Shown in pieces: positions 1 to 36,695 of a stretch of 41,171 bases of DNA. Numbering within the stretch: the first letter of the stretch is position 1; the number at the start of each line of letters is the position of its first letter. Both the position numbers and the translations under genes were made by a program. The notes beneath the pieces are model-generated. The model ran no database searches. It had not been told where the DNA came from and worked only from the letters and a program-made list of their open reading frames with translations. Origin of the DNA: a virus (lineage: Duplodnaviria > Heunggongvirae > Uroviricota > Caudoviricetes); the IMG/VR virus record IMGVR_UViG_2778261424_000010, positions 1-41,171 of that record. One strand, given 5' to 3'.

Positions 1-1194
1 ATGATCACCGACACAAAGCTCAGGAAGGCGCTCGGCAAGAAAAGAGATGATATCGAGATTATTTCTGATTCGCACGGGCTCAACGCCAGAATCAGCCAGG
101 CCGGAAAAATATCATTTTTCTATCGGTATCGCTGGGCCGGTAAAGCGGTAAAACTCAATGTTGGTGATTATCCTGCAATGAGTATCACCCAGGCAAGAGA
201 GCGTCGCCAACAATTCAGAAACTGGTTAACTGAGGGACTGGATCCGCGAGAGCAGGTGAAGCTGGATAAGCAGACCCGACAGGAAGCGATGTCCGTTGCC
301 GAAGCGTTCAATTACTGGATTGAAAGGCACTGTATCGCTAACGGGCTAGTTAAAGTCGATTACTATCGCCAGGTGTTTGAGAAACATATCGCCGAACCGA
401 TGAAGAATGTCAAAGTCGATAACACAGCGAAAATGCACTGGATCAACGTCTTCGATTCTATAGAAAGCAGGGTGATGGCTCATTACATGCTTTCGCTGTG
501 CAAACGGGCGTTTAGGTTCTGCGTTAACAGAAGTGTGATCGCCTCAAACCCACTCGAGGGATTACTGCCATCTGATGTCGGGCAAAAGCCTAAAAAGAGA
601 ACTCGCAGGATGGACGATGACGATCTGCGCAAAATCTATCAGTGGTTGAAAAGCCATATGTCGATAGAGTCCGTTTTCCTGGTGAAATTTATTATGCTTA
701 CCGGATGCCGTACGGCTGAGATTCGACTTAGTGAGAGATCATGGTTTCGATTGGATGATAATGAGTGGGTCGTGCCTGCGGGCAGTTATAAAACTCGGGT
801 ACATATTAGAAGGGGACTCTCAGACGCCGCCGTTAACCTGGTCAGAAATCACCTCAAGAAAATAAACACCAATCACCTGGTGACTTCACAACGTAAAATT
901 GATGGCGGGATCAAAGATTCGCCCGTTCATTCACCTGTGGCATCCAATTACGCCCGTTCTATTTGGAATGGAACAGGTATGGCAGAGTGGTCGCTTCATG
1001 ATATGAGGCGGACGATAGCCACAAATCTCTCTGAGTTAGGTTGCCCGCCGCACGTAATTGAAAAGCTGCTCGGGCATCAGATGGTGGGGGTTATGGCGCA
1101 TTACAACCTTCATGACTATATCGATGATCAGAAACACTGGCTCCGCGTTTGGCAGAGCCATCTTGAAGAGATCATCGGAGAGCCCTTCAGTTAA
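1..1194 (+). CDS. int: Tyrosine recombinase / phage integrase (P4-type)
   Basis: 397-aa ORF; C-terminal catalytic region with R..H..R..Y pattern (HDMRRT, LLGH, YNLHDY); ORF begins at window base 1 so 5' end could lie upstream. Confidence 0.88.
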
Positions 1195-1433
1195 TTTATC
1201 TTCTTTTTATCCTCCCACTCTTTGATTGACTCAGAGCGCCAGCGGTTAGGGTTGCCGGGCCAGTCAGGGGGTGGGAACGGGCATACGAAGCCCCGAGGCA
1301 TTGTGTCTGCACTTTGCCATGACCAAAGGGTTTTGCGTGAAATTTTGTAGCGACTGGTCAGGTCTGACGTTACCAAAATATCATCCATAGCTCTCTCCAG
1401 TTGCCCGTTCGGGCCATTCAAAATCTTTTTCAA
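1191..1433 (-). CDS. AlpA-like DNA-binding protein / putative excisionase
   Basis: Small ORF convergent on int; sequence [22 protein letters not shown]...MPRGF resembles AlpA/Xis-type HTH; TTG start overlapping stop of upstream ORF (alternative ATG at 1388). Confidence 0.55.
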
Positions 1434-1672
1434 CCAACCTGCCCGGGCAGGGAGCGGAGACGGCGCATGCCGGTCATCGCTGTGGCCACGTAGCTCGCCT
1501 TTCGGTTCACCACCTCCACCCAGACTTTCACGCCTTCAACCTTCACCGTATAAGTCTCTTTCATCTTGCTTCGCCCATAGTCGCCATATGTTTGCAAGTG
1601 AGCCGCCAGCGCAACATCGCAAGCGCGGCGACCAATAGGTGATTGCTTACTGCGATTAATCAGCTTCATCAT
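1430..1672 (-). CDS. Hypothetical small phage protein
   Basis: ORF translationally coupled to downstream xis-like ORF; no motif recognised. Confidence 0.3.
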   Translation of the reverse strand: MMKLINRSKQSPIGRRACDVALAAHLQTYGDYGRSKMKETYTVKVEGVKVWVEVVNRKASYVATAMTGMRRLRSLPGQVG

Positions 1673-1777
1673 CACTGCACTCCCAAAGTGGCTACGACAT
1701 CACTCGCTGTTTCGCGGGTACTGCCTTTGCTGGATATAGCCCGGTGCGCCCTGGCCTGCGGTAAAATGGTGTGCGTT

Positions 1778-2395
1778 TCATGCTGCACGCTCTGTGATTT
1801 TCTGAATTTCCGATTCCAGATCTGCAAGGAAGCTCTTAACCTCAGATTCGATTTCGCGCGCCAGCTCTTCATCGAAATGAATCCGCTTCTTGAAATAGGC
1901 GAGGTCAGGCGGCAGGCGATCATCGAAACTAACGAAATCACACCATTTCCGCCCGGTGCACATCATCTGTGCATGCATTTGCAGCATGTACTGGCGCTTT
2001 GGCTCACCAGTTTTCAGCGTTTCAAGATGGGTCCAGGTGTTGGGGCATTTGATTTCGATAAGCCCGTCGTCGTTGACAAGTCCGTCCGGGCTGGCTGCGA
2101 ATCCGGGTATGGTTGGGTGATCGATGAGCCCAACTTCAGTGATTGCCGCATTGAACTCATTCAGCGCGTACATTTCGCGTGCCACTGGCTCAAGTTCAGT
2201 GCCGCGCATCATCGCGGCATTCGAAAACCCTTCCTCCAGCTTCCCGGTCAGCCGTTGGCAAATCAGCTCGGCCATGTAGTTCTGGCGGCTGGTGGAGTAG
2301 CCCGACTTAGTCCGGGCCATGACATCAGCCAGGCGACTGGCTGTGACCTTGCCGCAGCGCGCAGCAAACCATTCAGGGGTGCGTTGCTCTATCAT
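1778..2395 (-). CDS. YqaJ-like viral recombinase exonuclease (lambda Exo-like)
   Basis: 205-aa ORF beginning MIEQRTPEWF..R, typical YqaJ/PD-(D/E)xK exonuclease N-terminus; directly upstream of and overlapping recT. Confidence 0.75.
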   Translation of the reverse strand: MIEQRTPEWFAARCGKVTASRLADVMARTKSGYSTSRQNYMAELICQRLTGKLEEGFSNAAMMRGTELEPVAREMYALNEFNAAITEVGLIDHPTIPGFAASPDGLVNDDGLIEIKCPNTWTHLETLKTGEPKRQYMLQMHAQMMCTGRKWCDFVSFDDRLPPDLAYFKKRIHFDEELAREIESEVKSFLADLESEIQKITERAA

Positions 2396-3153
2396 TCAGC
2401 CTCCGTCTCTGCGACATTGACAGGTTCGGCGTTGTCGACAGCAAGACTCATGTCATACATGCGTCGTTTCTCAACTGCGCCGATCACCTGTTTCTCTTCG
2501 GCGCTCAGCGCCACCCAGAACTCCTGATACTTAACGGTTCCAAGGCGCGCGGCGGACTCACCTTTTGCGATCAGTTCCGGGCGGCGGCTATCTGATTCAT
2601 GGCCCGCATGAACCTCTGCCGTTGTTCCTTCAATTACTCGCTCTGCCTCGTCCTGGTCGAAGATGCCAGCGAAACCAAAGGCCAGACGCGCGCACTGGAT
2701 CAGCGTCTTGTGGCGAAGCATGCGGGTAGGGTGGGACTGCCATGGCTGAGTGTTGCGTTTGCACTCTCCCATGTACTCGGTGACGATGGTCGGGTGCTTA
2801 CGGTCTTTGCGGTAAATCTTGCAGGTACACGCGCCTTCCTCCTTGTCGTAAGAGAATTCCATGCCGTCAAACTGAGGATGTTCGTTGATAATGCGAGCCC
2901 ATCCATCAACGCCGACGACCGGGACAATCCCGCCTTTATCTGGAAAGGCATAAATCTCTTTGGTCCATGGGTTCAGGCCGTACTGGTTGGCGACGATTAG
3001 CAGGGCTGTAAATTGCTCGTCCGTGACGTTGCCACCTTTGAACGCTGTATTCTTCAGCGTATTCATCAGGTCTGTACCGGCATCCATGCCGAGGCGTGCG
3101 GCCAGTTTCCCGGCCATGGTGGAAAGTGCAGTACTCATTGTTAAATCCCTCAA
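2392..3153 (-). CDS. recT: RecT-family single-strand annealing recombinase
   Basis: 253-aa ORF with RecT-like core (GLNPW..., VPVVGVDGWARI); paired with exonuclease. Confidence 0.8.
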   Translation of the reverse strand: MRDLTMSTALSTMAGKLAARLGMDAGTDLMNTLKNTAFKGGNVTDEQFTALLIVANQYGLNPWTKEIYAFPDKGGIVPVVGVDGWARIINEHPQFDGMEFSYDKEEGACTCKIYRKDRKHPTIVTEYMGECKRNTQPWQSHPTRMLRHKTLIQCARLAFGFAGIFDQDEAERVIEGTTAEVHAGHESDSRRPELIAKGESAARLGTVKYQEFWVALSAEEKQVIGAVEKRRMYDMSLAVDNAEPVNVAETEAE

Positions 3154-3156
3154 AAA

Positions 3157-3441
3157 TTAAAACGGGCAGCCGGTACGGTGTTCCCAGTCGTATTCCGCCT
3201 GGGCGTAAGCAACTACCGAAATGAAATCGTTGTAGGCCTCGCCAGCTTTATCGCTGCGAAGCCCTTCGTATGGGCTGGAGTCTATCGGGATCGTGAAGTG
3301 GAAGAGGCCGGACGGCTCTTTAGGCATCATGTCGATGATTTTCTGCGCCCGGTCGTCGATCCACTTCTCTTTCTCGTCGGTGATCTGCTGCTCAGCCCAG
3401 CGCCGATCTTCGATGCGGTCGTAAGTGAGGTATGCGTTCAT
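3157..3441 (-). CDS. Hypothetical early protein
   Basis: 94-aa ORF in early-left operon; no motif recognised. Confidence 0.4.
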   Translation of the reverse strand: MNAYLTYDRIEDRRWAEQQITDEKEKWIDDRAQKIIDMMPKEPSGLFHFTIPIDSSPYEGLRSDKAGEAYNDFISVVAYAQAEYDWEHRTGCPF

Positions 3442-3448
3442 GGTTGCC

Positions 3449-4420
3449 TCAGTAATGAATTTTCGCGCAGGGGATCAGGTCATCTTTCAGAGCGGTAAGC
3501 ACTTCGATAGCCTGCTCGCGGGTTAAGCTGGTTTGGCTGGTGAGCGCGTTAACGATGTTGGTGCCGACCGTCTTGCGGTGCTTAACGTCAGCTTCACGCT
3601 TTGCCTGCTCATCGGCGAGGCGCTTCTCTTCGGCCAGGCGGGCATCTTCGGCCTGTTTGGCCTTCAGGCGCTCGGCTTCAACCGCCGCGGCTTTTTCGCG
3701 TTCCGCCCTGGCTTCCGCTTCCTGCTTCTCGCGATCTGCACGCTGTTCCGCTTCGACGCGCTGGCGCTCCGCCAGTTCAGCGCGGGCTTTCTCTTCGGCT
3801 TCACGGCGCGCTGCGGCTTCAATCTCCGCTTTGTGCTTCGCTTCGGCATCGCGGCGGGCTTGTTCTGCCGCTTCCTGTTTCAGCCGCTCATCACGTTCAC
3901 GCTGAGCCTGTTCCGCCAGACGGCGCTGCTCTTCGCGGTCACGGTCAAAATCCTTGTTCATCAGTAGAGCCATTTCGTGGTCCGCTTCGAACTTGGCAGC
4001 CAGCTCCTGATCGAACCTGATGTTCATCTCCAGCGCTTCGGCGTGCATCGCGTTCATGGCTTCTTCAGCCTTAATGCGTTCCTGCTCGGCTTCCCATTCG
4101 GTGAGTGGGCGGCGGGTCGCATCGCGCAGCTCGTCGCAGGCATCAACGAATCGCTTAATTTCGGCCTCAGCCGGACGCACAGCCTCTTTCAGGCGCTTCA
4201 GGTACTCACGGCCCGGCTTTTCGATTGCCGTCTTGCTGCGGGACACCTGCGCTGCCAGAGAGGCAACACGGTCACGGCCTTTCTTCGTGGACAGGTCCGG
4301 CACTTCGTTTACAGCCTGGCGGATTTGCTCAAGGTACGCGTCAAGGCCGCCCGCTACGTAAAGCACTGGGGCCTGTTCCGGCTTGATTTCGATGACAGTT
4401 AAGTCCGTTACTTCGCTCAT
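3449..4420 (-). CDS. Hypothetical protein with long charged coiled-coil (E/A/R/K-rich) region
   Basis: 323-aa ORF; central region is low-complexity AEEKARAELAERQR-type repeats; opposite strand shows multiple shadow ORFs. Confidence 0.5.
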   Translation of the reverse strand: MSEVTDLTVIEIKPEQAPVLYVAGGLDAYLEQIRQAVNEVPDLSTKKGRDRVASLAAQVSRSKTAIEKPGREYLKRLKEAVRPAEAEIKRFVDACDELRDATRRPLTEWEAEQERIKAEEAMNAMHAEALEMNIRFDQELAAKFEADHEMALLMNKDFDRDREEQRRLAEQAQRERDERLKQEAAEQARRDAEAKHKAEIEAAARREAEEKARAELAERQRVEAEQRADREKQEAEARAEREKAAAVEAERLKAKQAEDARLAEEKRLADEQAKREADVKHRKTVGTNIVNALTSQTSLTREQAIEVLTALKDDLIPCAKIHY

Positions 4421-4490
4421 GGTTTCTCCTGAAATTTGGATGTGCAGATCCCGCCCGCGTAATGCCAGGCCGATCGGTTGAATAGGGTGG

Positions 4491-4688
4491 TTACTGCTGC
4501 GCGATGGATTTCGCCGGGAACTCGCCGTTGCGGATGATGCTTTCTACCGGCCAGCACTCAGCTGACACTTTCTGCTCTGTAGCTGCCAGGCTGCATTCCT
4601 GCTGGCTGTCGTAAACGCCGAGAATGACATCCTGATAATCACCGTTGGTCATTGCCACGGTCAGGACGAGTGCGAATAAAGTTTCCAT
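4491..4688 (-). CDS. Small hypothetical protein (hydrophobic N-terminus)
   Basis: ATG at 4688 overlapping stop of upstream small ORF (TGATG); N-terminal METLFALVLTVAM hydrophobic stretch. Confidence 0.35.
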   Translation of the reverse strand: METLFALVLTVAMTNGDYQDVILGVYDSQQECSLAATEQKVSAECWPVESIIRNGEFPAKSIAQQ

Positions 4689-4816
4689 CAGTGAAGAGTC
4701 CTCCCGATGGCGACGGCGTAAAGGCGTTTTGCTTCTTCCCACGCCGGAGCATTGCGATGGAGCACCGCGAACGACGCGAGCCGTTGGGCCTCTCTGATCT
4801 GCTGCTGGTTTACCAT
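4688..4816 (-). CDS. Small ORF (42 aa), hypothetical
   Basis: Hand-translated MVNQQQIREAQRLASFAVLHRNAPAWEEAKRLYAVAIGRTLH; below ORF-track size cut-off; coupled to next ORF. Confidence 0.25.
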   Translation of the reverse strand: MVNQQQIREAQRLASFAVLHRNAPAWEEAKRLYAVAIGRTLH

Positions 4817-4956
4817 GATTTCCTCTTGGCCTTATCGCGGCGAACGGAACGGTTAATACAAGACTTCAACGCATTTATTCAGTGTTTCAATGGGCGGTGG
4901 ATGGCCGCCGGTTGTCATAAATGGGCAGACTCGAAAATCTGCCTATGTATGGCCGA

Positions 4957-4977
4957 TAAAAAACCCGCCGGAGCGGG
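4957..4977 (-). terminator. Rho-independent terminator downstream of orphan 222-aa gene
   Basis: Minus-strand hairpin CCCGCTCCGGCGGG followed by U-tract (plus strand AAAAAACCCGCCGGAGCGGG). Confidence 0.55.
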
Positions 4978-5646
4978 TCATTCATTCTTTGGTATGCCGC
5001 AAAGGGCGTTTAGCGTTTCAACGGGAATGGCAAGTGCGGTGCTGGTCGCTTCACGGCGTTCCACCTCAGGCAAATATGGCACTGCCTCAGGCCACATCTC
5101 AGCCAGTTTTTTAACAGTTGAGACTTTGGTTAGAGCACCTTTAACCTGCAATTGGAAGGCATCAACTTCATCGTAAAGAACGTTGATGGTTACCGTCGAT
5201 TCAGTGAGTCGGTCGTGTAATTTTCCAACTTTCTTCAGCGTGCTGTAACTTTCAGGAACGAAACCCGAATCAATTACAGGCGCGAAGGAAGCTCCGAAGA
5301 ACAGGTCGCTTTCAAGATCGTGCTTACCAATATGTTTTCCACGGTGGCGATAGCGATGATCCAAACCGTTCCTGGCTAATTCGTGATACTCACCATTAAT
5401 AATGACCTTTAAAATTGCAGTTTTAGCGCCGACCTTCATCTTGATGAAGGAGTTATCTTTGAAATCTTCCCGAGCCTTAGTTATTTGCTCATCGCTAGTG
5501 TTTTCCTGCTTGAGCAATGCCTGTCGAATTTCTTCAACAATTTTCGCCCTCTCATTAACCGCAGCTTTCGCTTTCTCAAACAATGGGGATGCGAGAAGCA
5601 GGTTATGGCATAGCTGATTTTTAATTTCGTTGTTAAGACGAATCAT
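4978..5646 (-). CDS. Orphan 222-aa protein of unknown function in immunity-region accessory slot (candidate exclusion/defence gene)
   Basis: First ORF leftward of OL-like operators; SD GAGGGT upstream of ATG; followed by terminator; soluble, not Arg-rich; R-x4-H spacing (RNGLDH) present. Confidence 0.6.
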   Translation of the reverse strand: MIRLNNEIKNQLCHNLLLASPLFEKAKAAVNERAKIVEEIRQALLKQENTSDEQITKAREDFKDNSFIKMKVGAKTAILKVIINGEYHELARNGLDHRYRHRGKHIGKHDLESDLFFGASFAPVIDSGFVPESYSTLKKVGKLHDRLTESTVTINVLYDEVDAFQLQVKGALTKVSTVKKLAEMWPEAVPYLPEVERREATSTALAIPVETLNALCGIPKNE

Positions 5647-5692
5647 TGACTTACCCTCTGTCGTTACCCGCTGATGCGGGAGAAATGCTTTG

Positions 5693-5722
5693 TGGTGGAG
5701 TGCTACGGATTCGAACCGAAGT
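5693..5722 (-). other. tRNA 3'-end-like fragment (T-arm GGTTCGAATCC plus ...CTCCACCA); no complete tRNA
   Basis: Minus-strand reads ACTTCGGTTCGAATCCGTAGCACTCCACCA; no matching 5' acceptor strand found within 80 nt. Confidence 0.3.
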
Positions 5723-5918
5723 TTTCATGGGTGATCAGTCCATGCAGGCCCAGCCACACCCCATTACAAAACATTCCAGTTACGCACCATTGCCGCTCTC
5801 CCTGAGCCCGCCGGGCGTCCGACGCATGGTTTACTGTCGCGCCGTTCGACTGACCGAATCTCCACTTCGCCGCTGGCTAACTTCGCTCAGCTGTCGATGT
5901 TTCGTTTCGATGGGGTAA

Positions 5919-5999
5919 ATTTAGCGTGATGCTAAATTATGCGCAATAGCAAAATGCTAAATTGTTGAATGGTTTTATTTAGCGTATTGATTAATAAGC
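5919..5999. promoter_or_regulatory. OL-like operator cluster (TTTAGC-N5-GCTAAA inverted half-sites)
   Basis: TTTAGCGTGATGCTAAA at 5919-5935 plus TAGCAAAATGCTAAA and TTTAGCGTATTGATTAA nearby; same motif recurs in cI-cro intergenic region. Confidence 0.5.
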
Positions 6000-6033
6000 G
6001 ATTAAAAATTTACAGCGAAGGAATTCGGGACGT

Positions 6034-6058
6034 AAAAAAGCCCGCGCGATGGCGGGCT
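6034..6058 (-). terminator. Rho-independent terminator downstream of repressor gene
   Basis: Hairpin GCCCGC-GCGAT-GGCGGGC with U-tract on minus strand. Confidence 0.5.
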
Positions 6059-6077
6059 TGAGGGGTTTTGCGTGAGG

Positions 6078-6755
6078 TTATGGGATGTTTAGTATTTTGG
6101 CATCAACCACAACGCCGATGATTTTGCAGTTTCCATTAATTTCTAGCATTGGATATGCGGGGTTAAGGGGCTTTAGGAAGCGTCTGCCGGCATCGATTAC
6201 AAGCTTCTTAAAGGTCGCTTCGTTATCGCCTTCTAGCTTCGCGACAACCAGCTTTCCGTTGCGCGGCTCGACTTCAGGATCAACAAGTATCGCTGCTCCC
6301 TCGGGTATGCTCAGTCCAGCCGGGGAGGTCATAGAATCCCCTTTAACGTCCAGCCAGAATGAATCTTCTGAGCAGTCAACAGTCGTGTCATACCAGCGAT
6401 CTATCGCTCTTCGGTGATAAGGTTCTACAGCTTCCATCCATTGCCCCGCGCTTACCCAGCTGATTACAGGATAACTTCCTTTTGTCTCGTTCAGTCCTCG
6501 AAATGCAACGTTCGAAGGTTCTTCACTGGCGTGTAAAACATCCATCCAGCCAAAAGGCAGATCAAGCGCAGTTTCAATTTTGCGAGCCATCTTATCGCCG
6601 ATATTGCGATGAGGGTTTGGTCCCAGTAGCTGGCTAAGCGCAGCCGGACTTGTCTCGATGAGCTCGGCAAACTGCGCTTTGGTCATTCCAGACTCGTGCT
6701 GACGCTTCTCGTACAGCGCTTCCAGGTTGGCTTTTCTGATTTCTTTATTTTCCAT
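6078..6755 (-). CDS. CI-like prophage repressor (HTH plus LexA/S24 peptidase-like C-terminal domain)
   Basis: Start at internal ATG (MENKEIRK...); HTH region AQFAELIETSPAALSQL; C-terminal LVDPEVEPRNGKLVVAKLEG..ATFKKL typical of S24 autocleaving repressors; divergent from cro. Confidence 0.8.
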   Translation of the reverse strand: MENKEIRKANLEALYEKRQHESGMTKAQFAELIETSPAALSQLLGPNPHRNIGDKMARKIETALDLPFGWMDVLHASEEPSNVAFRGLNETKGSYPVISWVSAGQWMEAVEPYHRRAIDRWYDTTVDCSEDSFWLDVKGDSMTSPAGLSIPEGAAILVDPEVEPRNGKLVVAKLEGDNEATFKKLVIDAGRRFLKPLNPAYPMLEINGNCKIIGVVVDAKILNIP

Positions 6756-11388: not shown

Positions 11389-11570
11389 AAAACCGTAAAG
11401 CCAAAATCATCGTTCTTCGCGCTCTGAAAAACTGCTACCCGCGCCAATGGCTGAATGTAAGCAATCGACGCATGGTTCTCTTCACGCTCGGTGGTGTTAG
11501 CCGTGAAGGGCATCAATTCAAAAAGAGCGCAGCACAGAATCGCTGGAAGAATCATGTGAGGTTCCAATGA
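11385..11570 (+). CDS. Hypothetical small basic protein
   Basis: 61-aa coupled ORF. Confidence 0.3.
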   Translation: MKNRKAKIIVLRALKNCYPRQWLNVSNRRMVLFTLGGVSREGHQFKKSAAQNRWKNHVRFQ

Positions 11571-12322
11571 GCAACATCGACAAACATGCCGTCCAAGCAG
11601 TTGCCGATTTGAAAGCTGGTTACACCCTCGGTCACGCTGATGTGGCAATCCTGAACGAGTTGGCGCGTATCGCGCTGGCATCGCTCGAAGCGGAGGCTGT
11701 GGCTGATGTTGTCGCATGGTCTTCGCCAAACGAAGAGCGAACCTGTGATATCCGTATGCGTCGTCATGATATCAAGCCTGGCTCGCTCTACACCGCACCG
11801 CCAGCGCCGGAATTCTACAAGATAGGTGACGCCACCATGCGCCACATCTTCACGCCCGCTGTCATAACTGATGTTTCTGACATGCAGGCTGTGTTTGACC
11901 AGATTGAAACCGTGTTGGCAGGAATGTGGCAGCCAGCACCGGTATCTGTGCCTGATGAGCTAACCCGCGAAGAGTACAAGCGTCGGTTCATGGAAGATGA
12001 CTCTTTTGATGACACTTTCCGAGGTGGCTGGAACGCCTGCCGCGCCGCCATGCTTCATGGTGCCGAACCTGTAAGTAATCGTGATGAGTTGACAGACGGT
12101 TGGGTGGCTTGCAGTAAGCGGATGCCAAGCCCATCAACAGGTGTGATAGTTGCTGCGCCATGGCAATCAGCTCCTGGCGGCTATGCAATGAAGTGGGCAA
12201 CAAATTGCCCTGGGCATCCGGATGCAGATATAGATGGCTGGATTATACCAGGAGCATCATGGAGCCCAACCCACTGGATGCCGCTGCCGGCAGCGCCGCA
12301 GCAGGAAGATATTATTTGCTGA
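11567..12322 (+). CDS. Hypothetical protein with DUF551-like C-terminus
   Basis: 251-aa ORF; C-terminal W/P-rich segment (WIIPGASWSPTHWMPLP). Confidence 0.4.
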   Translation: MSNIDKHAVQAVADLKAGYTLGHADVAILNELARIALASLEAEAVADVVAWSSPNEERTCDIRMRRHDIKPGSLYTAPPAPEFYKIGDATMRHIFTPAVITDVSDMQAVFDQIETVLAGMWQPAPVSVPDELTREEYKRRFMEDDSFDDTFRGGWNACRAAMLHGAEPVSNRDELTDGWVACSKRMPSPSTGVIVAAPWQSAPGGYAMKWATNCPGHPDADIDGWIIPGASWSPTHWMPLPAAPQQEDIIC

Positions 12323-12323
12323 T

Positions 12324-12761
12324 CTAAGATGGTCTGTATGTAACAACCACCCCTAACTTACTGCCTACCGCATTGAGAGAATTAGAAATAGTTGTATAGG
12401 TTTCTTTGGGGGTGGTGTTTCTTCCTTCTTCTAAAATAGACGCAATAAGATTCAGATTCCACGAGGCCTTAAGGACATCTTTGTATCGAGGAAGGAGACG
12501 TAAAGTAGCCAACATTCCATACAAGGGTATGGCATTAGATTTTGACAACAGCAAAGCTGACGCCTGTTTGATTTCGTTTATTACTTCGCTTTTCGCATTG
12601 ATGCTAAGGATTTTATTTTGCTCACGCAGGAGAATGGCCGAAACCATCCCCAAATGTTCCTTGAATGAAATGTAAGGATCAAGCATGGATTTTACAAATA
12701 TCTGACCCAACACAAACACTGAAACACCAGTAATGACGGTAGTAAACACCCCATTATTCAT
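12324..12761 (-). CDS. Antisense cargo gene: N-terminally membrane-anchored 145-aa protein, unknown function
   Basis: AT-rich ORF on opposite strand to flanking nin genes; N-terminal TM VFTTVITGVSVFVLGQIFV. Confidence 0.5.
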   Translation of the reverse strand: MNNGVFTTVITGVSVFVLGQIFVKSMLDPYISFKEHLGMVSAILLREQNKILSINAKSEVINEIKQASALLLSKSNAIPLYGMLATLRLLPRYKDVLKASWNLNLIASILEEGRNTTPKETYTTISNSLNAVGSKLGVVVTYRPS

Positions 12762-12821
12762 AACCAGGCCATCCCTTCTGTTTTTTATCCCGATATCATA
12801 ATCTACGGATTGTTTAACAAG

Positions 12822-12959
12822 CTAGATCAAATCCAGCCTTCCCTGAAGTACTAATTGCAAATGTATTTTGTGAATCATCCCGGCGGGTAGAGATTTATAA
12901 ACCAGCATCAAGACACCAATGGCCTCTTCGAAGGCCTTTCTCTTATGTTGATTTTCCAT
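12822..12959 (-). CDS. Small hydrophobic ORF (about 45 aa) upstream of antisense cargo gene
   Basis: MENQHKRKAFEEAIGVLMLVYKSLPAGMIHKIHLQLVLQGRLDLI; same strand, 60 nt upstream of 12324-12761 gene. Confidence 0.3.
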   Translation of the reverse strand: MENQHKRKAFEEAIGVLMLVYKSLPAGMIHKIHLQLVLQGRLDLI

Positions 12960-13129
12960 AATCAACCAGCCATAATTTAACCGTCGTCGGAGTTGAACGC
13001 CCGACGGTAAGACTTCTGCGCATTTAAGGGGACTTAAATGCGACCACAATATGAACTTCTCACCTTGTCACAGATGCAGAAATGCACCTGCGATTTTCTG
13101 TATTCTGCGTTACCTCTCGGAGGTGGCGT

Positions 13130-13567
13130 ATGAAACAGCCTGTTTTCTACCTCCGCGACGAACGCGTTCGCGATAACCTCATCGACTACATCAGGAAGCT
13201 GCCTGTTAACGACGCTCTGCCGCTCGTGGTGAAGTTTTCTGAGGCTGACCGCACTCTCGCCCAAAACGACCTCTTCCACGCTCTCTGTGGCGATACAGCG
13301 AAGCAATTGCAATGGGCTGGCAAGTCGCGCGACCTCGCTTCATGGAAAGTCCTGTATGTCTCAGGCCATGCCATTGCCACCGGTAAGCCTGGTGAAGTGG
13401 TGCCGGGTCTGGAAGGGGAGTTCTGCGCCATCCGGGAAAGCACTGCGAAGATGGGCATCCGTCGCATGACCAGTCTCATCGAATACAGCCAGGCATTTGC
13501 TGTGCAAAACGGCGTGCAACTCCGTGAAGTTCGCTACTCAGGTGATTACTTCGGGAGGGTTGCGTAA
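13130..13567 (+). CDS. ninB: NinB (Orf-family recombination protein)
   Basis: MKQPVFYLRDERVRDNLIDYIRKLP... resembles lambda NinB; nin-region context. Confidence 0.7.
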   Translation: MKQPVFYLRDERVRDNLIDYIRKLPVNDALPLVVKFSEADRTLAQNDLFHALCGDTAKQLQWAGKSRDLASWKVLYVSGHAIATGKPGEVVPGLEGEFCAIRESTAKMGIRRMTSLIEYSQAFAVQNGVQLREVRYSGDYFGRVA

Positions 13568-33999: not shown

Positions 34000-35064
34000 A
34001 TGTCTCTTAACTGGATGCGCCATTTTGAGCTGCAACTGTTGGACCAGAACGGGCAGGGCGTTTCCCTGTCTGACTTTAAGGTCACGTTCCAGATCGAGTG
34101 GGCAGACACACGCTGGCCACGCGTGGCGAACGTGAAAATTTACAACCTTTCGACCGATACCACGAACAAGATACTGGGGCAGGAGTTTGCAAAAATTCGC
34201 ATCATTGCCGGGTATGACGGTATTGCGCCGGATGTTGATGCGAGCCAGGTTGGTGTCGCCCGGGAGATTTCACCAGACCAGGTAGGGCAGGTGAACGGTC
34301 AGAACTACGGCCTGATATTTGACGGTGATATTCGCTTCACCGTCACCGGGAAGGACAACATCACCGATTCCTGGGTGCTGATTCAGGCCATCAGTAACCA
34401 CGAAGCGTTCCTCTACGCGACTACCATCACCACGCTTGCCGCTGGTTATACCGTTGCGGACCTGCACCGGGCGACTATGCAGGATTTCAACGCGTTCGGC
34501 GTGACGCAGGGCATTACCGGTGACTTTCCTGATACCGTGTTTCCTCGTGGCCGTGCGATTTATTCATCCACCCGTAACGTGATGGATAATATTGCTGCGC
34601 AGTGCAAAGCGACATGGCAGCTGGTGGATGGTCAGGTCCAGATGGTGCCGGAGGATAAATATATTCACGAAGCCATTGTGTTGAATGCCGATACTGGCCT
34701 GATCGGTATGCCGCAACAAACGATGGGCGGCGGCGTAAACGTGCGGTGCCTGATAAACCCAAACATCCGTATTAATGGTCTTATCCAGCTCGATCAGGCT
34801 TCGGTGTACCGCGCCGCGCTCGGCAATAGCGAAATCGCACAGTCGCCCGGGCGTATCACCGAAACAGAAGAGAACGGCAACCGTGTGCTGACCGGCACGA
34901 CGTCACAGGCTGCCAGCATTGCGACGGATGGCGTTTATATCGTCAAAGCTATCGACTATACTGGCGACACCAGAGGTCAGGCGTGGTACATGGATTTGAT
35001 GTGTTTTGCGCGTGGCGCTCGTGATCTTTATAGCCCGAAAGCAATGCAAGGGACGACGAATTAG
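34000..35064 (+). CDS. Baseplate hub/late-control-D-like protein candidate
   Basis: 354-aa ORF in baseplate series. Confidence 0.4.
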   Translation: MSLNWMRHFELQLLDQNGQGVSLSDFKVTFQIEWADTRWPRVANVKIYNLSTDTTNKILGQEFAKIRIIAGYDGIAPDVDASQVGVAREISPDQVGQVNGQNYGLIFDGDIRFTVTGKDNITDSWVLIQAISNHEAFLYATTITTLAAGYTVADLHRATMQDFNAFGVTQGITGDFPDTVFPRGRAIYSSTRNVMDNIAAQCKATWQLVDGQVQMVPEDKYIHEAIVLNADTGLIGMPQQTMGGGVNVRCLINPNIRINGLIQLDQASVYRAALGNSEIAQSPGRITETEENGNRVLTGTTSQAASIATDGVYIVKAIDYTGDTRGQAWYMDLMCFARGARDLYSPKAMQGTTN

Positions 35065-35076
35065 TGAGGTGGGGCC

Positions 35077-35421
35077 GTGAGACATTTACTTTGCACTGTT
35101 ACCGTGTTCGCGGTGCTTATATCAGCACCCGCTTTTGCGGATCAGCAATGTGGTGATTTTAAAATCCATTGGGCAGATGATGGCTTAGCCAGAATCAATG
35201 GCGCAAAGCCAGAAATGCAAAAAATCACCTTCCTGAAAAACAAAGGCGATTATAACAATATCAAGATGGATTGGCGTATGGCTACCGATCAGCCTGGAAG
35301 ATGGGTTGGTCTTGAGTACATCAATCGAAACGGCAAAGCCATTCTCAACGCACAGTGGTTGCAAGCCAGCATGGATTCGCCGCGTCAGTATGCAACATAC
35401 GACTGCCGAAAAGTAAAATAG
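35077..35421 (+). CDS. Cargo gene: secreted/periplasmic 114-aa protein with Sec signal peptide
   Basis: GTG start after GAGGTGGGG; signal peptide MRHLLCTVTVFAVLISAPAFA|DQQ; two Cys; AT-rich. Confidence 0.5.
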   Translation: MRHLLCTVTVFAVLISAPAFADQQCGDFKIHWADDGLARINGAKPEMQKITFLKNKGDYNNIKMDWRMATDQPGRWVGLEYINRNGKAILNAQWLQASMDSPRQYATYDCRKVK

Positions 35422-35439
35422 CCCGCCAGATAGGCGGGC
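35411..35439 (-). terminator. Rho-independent terminator for minus-strand cargo gene
   Basis: GCCCGCC-AGATAG-GCGGGC hairpin with U-tract on minus strand. Confidence 0.45.
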
Positions 35440-35444
35440 ATGCG

Positions 35445-35735
35445 TCAAAAATATTGAGCTTTAATTATAATAAACACAATAATTACGAACAGGATGTTTC
35501 TAATTATTTTTTGCTTATGAGTAAGTTGTTTTTTTTCTGTCGATTTCCCGGGAGAGTAAAGGTTAGTGGTATGCGACAGCCCCGTGCCGGGAAGGCCATT
35601 TGTCATCTTTACGCCTTTTTTTCCGATGTTAATGGTGGAACCTTTACCACCAATTGAAGTGCTTACTCCGCTTTTACTAATGTTGATCGCGAGTCCGGGC
35701 GCAATCCGGATTCTTTTACGAAATCTAAATCCCAT
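35445..35735 (-). CDS. Cargo gene: DUF4236-like small protein with C-terminal hydrophobic anchor
   Basis: MGFRFRKRIRIAPGLAINISKSGVSTSIGGKG N-terminus (DUF4236-like by memory); C-terminal ILFVIIVFIIIKAQYF; very AT-rich. Confidence 0.5.
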   Translation of the reverse strand: MGFRFRKRIRIAPGLAINISKSGVSTSIGGKGSTINIGKKGVKMTNGLPGTGLSHTTNLYSPGKSTEKKQLTHKQKIIRNILFVIIVFIIIKAQYF

Positions 35736-35957: not shown

Positions 35958-36695
35958 ATGCCAATTCCAACTCAATCACAGATCGGGGGTGAGCAGCAGA
36001 CCGCGCAGGCCATTGCCGATTCGGTGTCTACCCAGATGCGCGTAGCGATGCCCGGCATCATTCAGTCGTTCGATCCTGACACTGTTACCTGCACAGTAGA
36101 GGTAGCGCTTCGCGGTATTGTTGGCGATGGCTCCACCGAATTAAAACCGCTGGTGGATGTGCCGGTTATCTTCCCGCGCGGCGGCGGTTGCACGCTGACC
36201 TTTCCGGTAAAAGAAGGCGACGAGTGCCTGCTGATCTTTGCCGACCGTTGCATCGATTTCTGGTGGCAGAGCGGCGGCGTTCAGGAGACCGTCGACCCGC
36301 GCCAGCATGACTTATCTGATGCGTTCGCCATCGTTGGCCCGCAGTCGAAAGCGCAGAAAATAAGCGGTATCAGTACCAGCGCCGCGCAGCTGCGCAGCGA
36401 CGACGGAAGCTCGTTCTTTGAGCTCAACCCCACTACGCAGAAAATTAAAATCGTAGCGCCTGGCGGTCTGGAAGTGGTTACCCCGCTGGCCGACTTCTCG
36501 GCGAAAGTTACCATTCACGGGCTCCTTTCCTGGCTTGGTGGAATGGTGGGTTCTGTTGCTTCTGGCGTTGCATCCAAAATCACTGGCGCTGTCGAGTTTA
36601 TCGGCACCGTTAAAGCTAACGGTAAGTCAATTGATGATACGCACACTCATGGAGGCGTGCAGCATGGCACCAGCAACACAGACGGGGTGAACTGA
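35958..36695 (+). CDS. Baseplate spike / gpV-like protein
   Basis: 245-aa ORF; position before gpW/gpJ-like genes. Confidence 0.5.
   Translation: MPIPTQSQIGGEQQTAQAIADSVSTQMRVAMPGIIQSFDPDTVTCTVEVALRGIVGDGSTELKPLVDVPVIFPRGGGCTLTFPVKEGDECLLIFADRCIDFWWQSGGVQETVDPRQHDLSDAFAIVGPQSKAQKISGISTSAAQLRSDDGSSFFELNPTTQKIKIVAPGGLEVVTPLADFSAKVTIHGLLSWLGGMVGSVASGVASKITGAVEFIGTVKANGKSIDDTHTHGGVQHGTSNTDGVN

Follow-up and report, generated by a model that had tools for sequence, protein, structure and literature searches.

The nin region of this phage is interrupted by a short A+T rich segment whose coding strand is opposite to that of its neighbors, and the question is whether the segment is acquired cargo, how many genes it carries, and what its product might do. 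The window, as the whole 41,171-nucleotide stretch analyzed here is called (IMG/VR record IMGVR_UViG_2778261424_000010), has a DUF551 gene at 11567-12322 (+; Pfam DUF551, E 2e-12) and ninB at 13130-13567 (+; Pfam NinB, E 6e-39). The slot between them is occupied by an antisense ORF of 145 amino acids at 12324-12761 (-), the stop codon of which is one base away from the DUF551 stop. The flip of the coding strand that was described in the original prediction is therefore seen, the ORF being on the minus strand and both flanks on the plus strand. The same prediction read 12324-13049 as one laterally acquired cassette. Up to about 12916 this holds, and the DNA is cargo, but 12960-13049 belongs to the backbone, where it forms part of the leader of ninB. 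We are highly confident of the anatomy that results, namely, a one-gene, laterally exchanged, A+T rich antisense moron, of about 12323-12916, for a bitopic inner-membrane protein.

The base composition of the segment is distinct. GC content is 0.39-0.41 over 12300-13000 as against 0.54-0.58 on each side, and for 12323-12916 it is 0.401, whereas the DUF551 gene has 0.549 and ninB 0.559. When 594-bp windows are taken over the whole 41 kb (mean 0.53, sd 0.04), 12323-12916 ranks at the 0.15th percentile, which makes it essentially the lowest-GC stretch of that length. An A+T richness that had been judged by eye is thus borne out by computation. The composition is not uniform with that of the neighbors, a match to a nin protein is absent, and these two results support the earlier claim of laterally acquired, compositionally distinct antisense cargo for a membrane-anchored protein. 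The segment has the marks of a moron: a composition of its own, and presence or absence at one site among related phages. The features on which the following account draws are, in the cargo and at its right-hand junction:

12324-12761, minus strand: coding sequence of the 145-aa protein, assigned to PHROG 7512; stop codon TAG at 12324-12326

12690-12752, minus strand: predicted single N-terminal transmembrane (TM) helix, codons 4-24, with near-invariant G12, G19, and Q20, followed by K24 and an invariant P29

12762-12916, minus strand: cassette-specific upstream region (5' UTR and presumed promoter), GC 0.40

12795-12800, minus strand: TATGAT, a -10-like box, of which T1, A2, and T6 are invariant in 8 diverged loci

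12822-12959, minus strand: 45-aa open frame, judged not to be a gene, which spans the cassette/backbone junction antisense to the DUF1367 fossil and the backbone terminator

12855-12890, plus strand: fossil 5' end of a DUF1367-type gene, 11 codons reading LQMYFVNHPGG and then a stop

The 145-aa ORF is a real gene. Its dN/dS, determined pairwise against six homologous loci, is 0.12-0.26, indicating purifying selection, and residues 1-143 match positions 1-140 of the 141-position profile of phrog_7512 (E 1.3e-57). Purifying selection and the large size of the family together argue that the ORF is not a chance one. The same DNA in Escherichia coli KL53 is annotated by RefSeq/PGAP as coding for a hypothetical protein, WP_023306327.1. 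Length, TM helix, and motifs are shared with PHROG 7512 (WP_023306327.1, WP_012300440.1, WP_016240784.1, and orf109 of D6), and by these sequence features the protein is a member of that already known, functionally uncharacterized phage protein family. The unannotated phrog_7512 is the only PHROG match of the protein at E<=1; in Pfam, which has no model of the family, there is no match. A search of the literature found no mention of the family or its accessions. A routine nin-region protein (NinA-NinH, Rap/NinG, RusA, or NinB/Orf) was considered and rejected, as Pfam, NCBIfam, and PHROG gave no nin-family match for the 145-aa protein, though ninB itself was recognized.

The second gene that had been proposed for the cassette, a small hydrophobic ORF of 45 amino acids, does not survive comparison with other loci. 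In favor of it are an ATG-started open frame on the same strand, 60 bp upstream of the 145-aa gene, and a faint similarity to phrog_24589 (E 0.34), on which one could imagine a two-gene cassette with the 45-aa product as a small hydrophobic antitoxin, toxin, or co-factor of the 145-aa protein. The hydrophobicity of the frame is only moderate (15-residue maximum of 1.43), and PGAP/RefSeq annotation of the identical DNA does not call it. By tblastn, the frame is found only at loci where the 145-aa gene is at least 98.6% identical, that is, in the same DNA, and never at loci where the 145-aa homologue is 42-70% identical. In six Enterobacter loci, ATT replaces its ATG, the downstream sequence is unrelated, and other, shorter ORFs are open at its position. 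Nor is there room for the frame in Citrobacter and Atlantibacter prophages, where the 145-aa homologue lies only 74-94 bp from its divergent neighbor. The codons themselves have other origins: the first 14 belong to the backbone leader of ninB, are kept in cassette-free phages, and overlap the terminator hairpin, and the rest run antisense to the fossil DUF1367 start. A toxin-partner or toxin-antitoxin cassette was therefore rejected, there being no co-conserved second gene at 28 chromosomal and further distant loci and no conserved partner throughout the family. The small ORF is not co-conserved and straddles the junction of cassette and backbone, and the two-gene reading, to which we would give hardly any credence, is essentially refuted. 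Since the 45-aa frame fails these comparative tests, the cargo is a single gene preceded by about 155 bp of cassette-specific DNA.

The upstream DNA is about 70% identical to that of Atlantibacter-type loci as far as 12886, and the sequence beyond about 12945 diverges from the Enterobacter loci. An alignment of eight loci shows a TAnnAT box 34-39 nt ahead of the ATG (variants TATGAT, TACGAT, TACCAT, TAAAAT, and TAGGAT), which is the sole conserved promoter-like element for the 145-aa gene. No convincing -35 was found near the box, and a scan of the minus strand for the sigma-70 consensus gave weak candidates only, with 8-of-12 matches. No minus-strand terminator was predicted for the gene. The gene would thus appear to have its own promoter, which is probably weak or regulated. 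The interval 12960-13080, proposed originally for the promoter, is conserved backbone, which phi80, HK639, and cassette-free E. coli prophages have as well. The upstream region may also record where the module came from. The fossil LQMYFVNHPGG, when translations are compared, corresponds to the N-terminus of the Atlantibacter DUF1367 protein, LQIDLVKHPGGVFSP, and in Atlantibacter prophages the 145-aa homologue is divergent from the DUF1367 gene. The comparison indicates a divergent arrangement of the Atlantibacter type, of which the fossil start is a remnant, as the source from which the module was captured.

The DNA to the right of the cargo has a conserved structure of its own, with the following features:

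12917-13129, plus strand: non-coding leader of ninB, about 210 bp, backbone and not cargo

12921-12946, plus strand: predicted backbone intrinsic terminator, GGCCTCTTCGAAGGCC and a T-run, found by terminator scan, the right-hand limit of the cargo

12948-12965: inverted repeat TTGATTTTCCATAATCAA, arms conserved, loop variable

12948-12976, plus strand: sigma-70-like site TTGATT-17-CATAAT

about 12985-13011: hairpin, seen by eye

13019-13042: perfect 10-bp palindrome CGCATTTAAG/CTTAAATGCG, annotated as 'IR4' in phi80

13075-13092: second terminator-like hairpin

The leader is conserved in phi80, HK639, three cassette-free E. coli prophages, and Enterobacter and Kosakonia prophages. The terminator at 12921-12946 is kept in two cassette-free E. 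coli prophages with changes in the loop only (TTCGAA to TTCGGA or TCCGGA). Rfam gave no match for the leader, which could serve as a cluster of terminators like tR2, as a regulatory leader, or as a region for protein binding.

The gene keeps to one slot in lambdoid prophages, and the module moves between their backbones, as the following comparisons suggest. At all loci examined in lambdoid prophages of Enterobacter, Kosakonia, Citrobacter, Atlantibacter, and E. coli, the homologue is in the same slot and in the same antisense orientation, which are kept despite a protein identity of only 52-70% among the enterobacterial homologues. One Kosakonia chromosomal copy (locus L022) has a different prophage context. 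In cassette-free relatives the slot holds forward genes, such as one for the theta subunit of DNA polymerase III or for small hypothetical proteins. Of 5,426 complete E. coli genomes, 12 have the full segment and 1,205 the adjoining ninB leader. The window and the KL53 prophage have mosaic blocks in common only and are not the same prophage as a whole. In IMG/VR prophage contigs, a block that is 97-99% identical extends from 12269 (or 12026) to 13139 of the window, and in the same contigs the proteins on the two sides are far less alike, the rest of the DUF551 gene product being 27-54% and NinB about 32% identical. A near-identical block within divergent DUF551 and NinB backbones argues for exchange by recombination in the DUF551 domain and the ninB leader. 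The moron thus opposes early rightward transcription, with the DUF551 gene, the final accessory gene in the replication block, on one side and the ninB leader on the other, and it passes between lambdoid backbones by recombination in these two flanks.

The claim that the protein has an N-terminal TM helix and a soluble helical domain agrees with hydropathy and structure prediction. The hydropathy peak is at residues 5-23 (Kyte-Doolittle 19-residue mean of 2.06, the maximum of the protein), and the remainder is all-helical in AlphaFold2 models. These were made from alignments of 19 and 63 sequences, with pLDDT of 78.5 and 83.3, respectively, and are the same model: a continuous helix 3-46 (pLDDT 85-95), with which helices 58-77, 93-112, and 119-136 pack. 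The protein is accordingly modeled as a TM helix joined to a basic, up-down four-helix bundle. The orientation in the membrane can be judged from the family. In 219 members, the TM helix begins at about residue 5, the mean number of Lys and Arg is 0.29 in the N-tail as against 2.13 in the 15 residues past the helix, and the C-terminal domain has a net positive charge in 81%. By the positive-inside statistics, an N-out/C-in topology is favored and the bundle is probably cytoplasmic. The conserved residues are P29 (invariant), G12, G19, Q20, K24, F33, K34, G38, S41, Q48, P79, Y81, P91, L103, and N104, and conservation analysis shows no set of Asp, Glu, His, or Cys of a catalytic type. The TM helix is among the best-conserved stretches of the protein, and its strong conservation argues for a role beyond anchoring. 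Fold searches in BFVD and the PDB returned generic helical bundles only, with no match at E<0.4.

The family is far wider than lambdoid prophages. When 1.84 billion cluster representatives were searched with a profile, 1,585 proteins matched at E<=1e-3 and 694 did so at E<=1e-10. Nearly all are of 130-180 aa, and among their named sources are Enterobacteriaceae, Burkholderiales, Clostridium botulinum, and Chloroflexota. GTDB species genomes, when scanned, extend the range to Psychrobacter, Halomonas, Marinobacter, Vibrio, Nostoc, Acidobacteriota, deltaproteobacteria, Filobacillus, and one archaeal metagenome-assembled genome (Aenigmatarchaeota). Of 60 diverse relatives, all match phrog_7512. 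The gene is always a singleton: no neighbor is shared among 28 non-redundant chromosomal loci, and the genes downstream of distant members are mutually unrelated.

On mobile elements, members turn up repeatedly in accessory slots. In the P1-like phage D6, the member (orf109) is between humD and phd/doc, and in 47-kb phage-plasmids it adjoins a RelE/HTH toxin-antitoxin pair and a Rha regulator. In PLSDB, 348 plasmid records have a member, and 264 of these are typed as conjugative, IncX1 included, where the member is in the maintenance region near resolvase, hns/hha/topB, and dinQ. In satellite-like elements its flanks are a protease-capsid fusion gene and an AAA_25 gene, to which it is antisense. 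In a C. botulinum prophage it is co-oriented with the early genes, upstream of terminase; the next gene downstream of this copy (locus L011, 5576-6067) codes for a 163-aa protein of comparable build, in which a hydrophobic N-terminal segment is followed by a part that looks helical by eye, and for which BLAST detects no similarity to the family. A copy in the IncF plasmid p1658/97 (locus L063, 4977-5416) matches by tblastn in two pieces and is annotated as a 114-aa protein, which suggests that it may be frameshifted or decaying.

Other members are found near defense genes in some cases and near housekeeping genes in others. Loci L050, L012, L054, and L065 are clear cases of defense neighbors. 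In L050, from an uncultured bacterium (1-6600), a 199-aa member is 13 bp downstream of a TmtA-like gene (Tiamat-like, SACS/HATPase; E 2e-59), which itself follows a gene for a DrmD-like SNF2 helicase (E 1e-112); the trio could be one defense operon with the family member as its membrane component. Distant members also have as neighbors two type II methylases and a type IIG/I restriction-methylase, or a divergent LexA-C5-methylase fusion, or a ParE toxin gene on one side and an E1/Ubl/E2/JAB operon on the other. Among 106 genes at most two positions from the 28 chromosomal members, 16 PADLOC model names were found at E<=1e-10, including PDC-S39, mad3, mad8, type IV restriction enzyme, Tmn, PD-Lambda-3_A, PbeA, Avs4, and AriA. 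The 16 is a count of PADLOC names and not of proteins, and as an uncontrolled count it makes any enrichment of defense genes suggestive only. The same 106 neighbors include many housekeeping genes, for example those for GcvP, SRP54, HisG, and DNA polymerase III delta'. In five Psychrobacter species (loci L076-L080, 3728-8441), the member follows, at a distance of 5 bp, a conserved gene for a 1,410-aa protein, probably hrpA; only the Psychrobacter neighbor set gave DUF3418/DEAD/Helicase_C matches in Pfam, which were obtained for the set and not assigned to individual proteins. The Psychrobacter arrangement is a stable chromosomal one, in contrast to the contexts on mobile elements.

The locus can be compared to three groups of known systems. 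The morons of lambdoid phages, such as lambda bor and lom and gp15 of HK97, are extra transcription units of deviant composition that are variably present and expressed from the prophage. The 145-aa gene resembles them in its deviant GC, its presence or absence at a fixed slot, and an orientation independent of the surrounding operon. Unlike with them, a flanking promoter-terminator pair could not be recognized, the one conserved signal being the -10-like box. Prophages also code for small membrane proteins of superinfection exclusion, among them HK97 gp15, lactococcal Sie2009, P22 SieA, SieB of lambda and P22, and T4 Imm, and Sie2009 genes sit beside the integrase gene. The 145-aa protein is likewise small, membrane-anchored, and encoded by a single gene in an accessory slot of a prophage, and one distant relative is directly beside an integrase gene, as with Sie2009. 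However, exclusion families are narrow and host-specific, whereas PHROG 7512 is found in many phyla and on conjugative plasmids and chromosomes, and the bulk of the 145-aa protein is predicted to be cytoplasmic, which is another difference. No homology to SieA/SieB, HK97 gp15, Imm, Sie2009, or Cor was found among annotated PHROG and Pfam families at E<=1 or in the fold searches. As to the single-protein and membrane-effector systems in PADLOC, the family is similarly sporadic, on mobile elements, and at home in neighborhoods with restriction-modification, Tiamat-like, DISARM-like, MADS, Avs, and PARIS-like genes. It differs from those systems in having no enzymatic or NTPase domain and in the many members that are in housekeeping neighborhoods. 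None of the 5,027 models of PADLOC-DB v2.0.0 matches the 145-aa protein, and 60 relatives searched with these models gave a single, chance-level match to SduA (E 0.0045). An i-spanin, Rz-like, with an N-terminal TM helix and a helical domain of about 150 aa, was also considered and rejected. The lysis genes are far from this antisense gene of the nin region; just one same-strand ORF is embedded in it (12581-12682, 33 aa), in which no obvious lipobox of a lipoprotein partner is seen by eye; and topology statistics that favor a cytoplasmic domain disfavor an i-spanin.

The only clue to what the protein does is where its gene is found. Our best guess, which we offer tentatively, is a lysogen-expressed exclusion or abortive-infection protein that acts at the inner membrane against incoming mobile DNA; an exclusion function is plausible from genomic context and not from homology. 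The gene would be transcribed in the lysogen from its own weak promoter, which is the most likely arrangement because the gene opposes lytic transcription. The product would have a four-residue N-tail outside, the TM helix with its conserved Gly and Gln residues, and the basic four-helix bundle in the cytoplasm. The bundle might bind or sense a component of the invader or of the host at the membrane, and the TM helix might associate with itself or dock on a partner in the membrane. This could lead either to superinfection exclusion, by blocking the entry of DNA, or to abortive infection, by compromising the membrane; we weigh the two about equally. Receptor-specific exclusion fits poorly with so broad a phylogenetic range and with carriage on conjugative plasmids, and a generic membrane mechanism is slightly favored. 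That PHROG 7512 as a whole is an unrecognized but widespread family of single-protein, membrane-anchored defense or exclusion factors that lack an enzymatic domain, with which lambdoid prophages, phage-plasmids, satellites, IncX conjugative plasmids, and chromosomal defense islands in many phyla would keep out phages or plasmids at the inner membrane, is a possibility about which we are rather doubtful.

Some of the same observations would suit a membrane protein that benefits the host or the element outside of defense, for example in envelope stress, membrane homeostasis, or the modulation of a protease or transporter, and that serves as a fitness or maintenance factor. A family of such breadth (1,585 representatives, many phyla, and an archaeal genome), the frequent housekeeping flanks, the synteny downstream of the probable hrpA in the five Psychrobacter species, the IncX1 position near resolvase, hns/hha, and dinQ, and the lack of a homologue among the PADLOC defense models are all consistent with it. 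A general membrane role is a fair possibility given the many chromosomal members that adjoin housekeeping genes. A fitness factor fits less well with a gene as sporadic within a species as the 12 of 5,426 E. coli genomes imply, with its recurrence in moron and accessory slots and near restriction-modification, Tiamat-like, DISARM-like, and ubiquitin-like systems, or with the lack of a conserved neighbor indicating a pathway; we consider such a role the main rival and somewhat less likely than defense. Much less likely is an accessory protein of the lytic cycle, such as a membrane tether or a regulator of replication, recombination, or lysis timing. The position between the replication module and the nin recombination module would suit such a protein, as would the co-orientation with early genes, upstream of terminase, in C. 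botulinum. But the gene is antisense to the pR-type operon at all enterobacterial loci, is carried by conjugative plasmids and by chromosomes that have no phage genes, and is missing from most closely related phages; moreover, it lies outside the lysis cassette, and no ORF for a lipoprotein is seen embedded in it.

The feature can be described as a prophage moron for a small membrane protein, which is not surprising in itself and is a cheap candidate for experiment. Were exclusion or abortive infection by the 145-aa protein true, the defense repertoire would gain a very small, domain-poor, and pan-bacterial protein family (at least 1,500 clusters at 50% identity, with neither a Pfam nor a PADLOC model). 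The DUF551-ninB slot of lambdoid prophages would then be a cargo position worth mining, and one anti-invader module would be common to phages, phage-plasmids, and conjugative plasmids. Were it not true, the annotation is still corrected from two genes to one, the boundaries of the cargo are fixed, and a structured ninB leader is documented.

The window has one other low-GC patch, at 35077-35735 (GC 0.41-0.43), flanked by large forward ORFs at 34000-35064 and 35958-36695. It comprises a 114-aa ORF at 35077-35421 (+), the N-terminus of which is signal-peptide-like, and an antisense 96-aa ORF at 35445-35735 (-), which begins with MGFRFRKRIRIAPG and ends in a hydrophobic tail. The patch may be a second moron.
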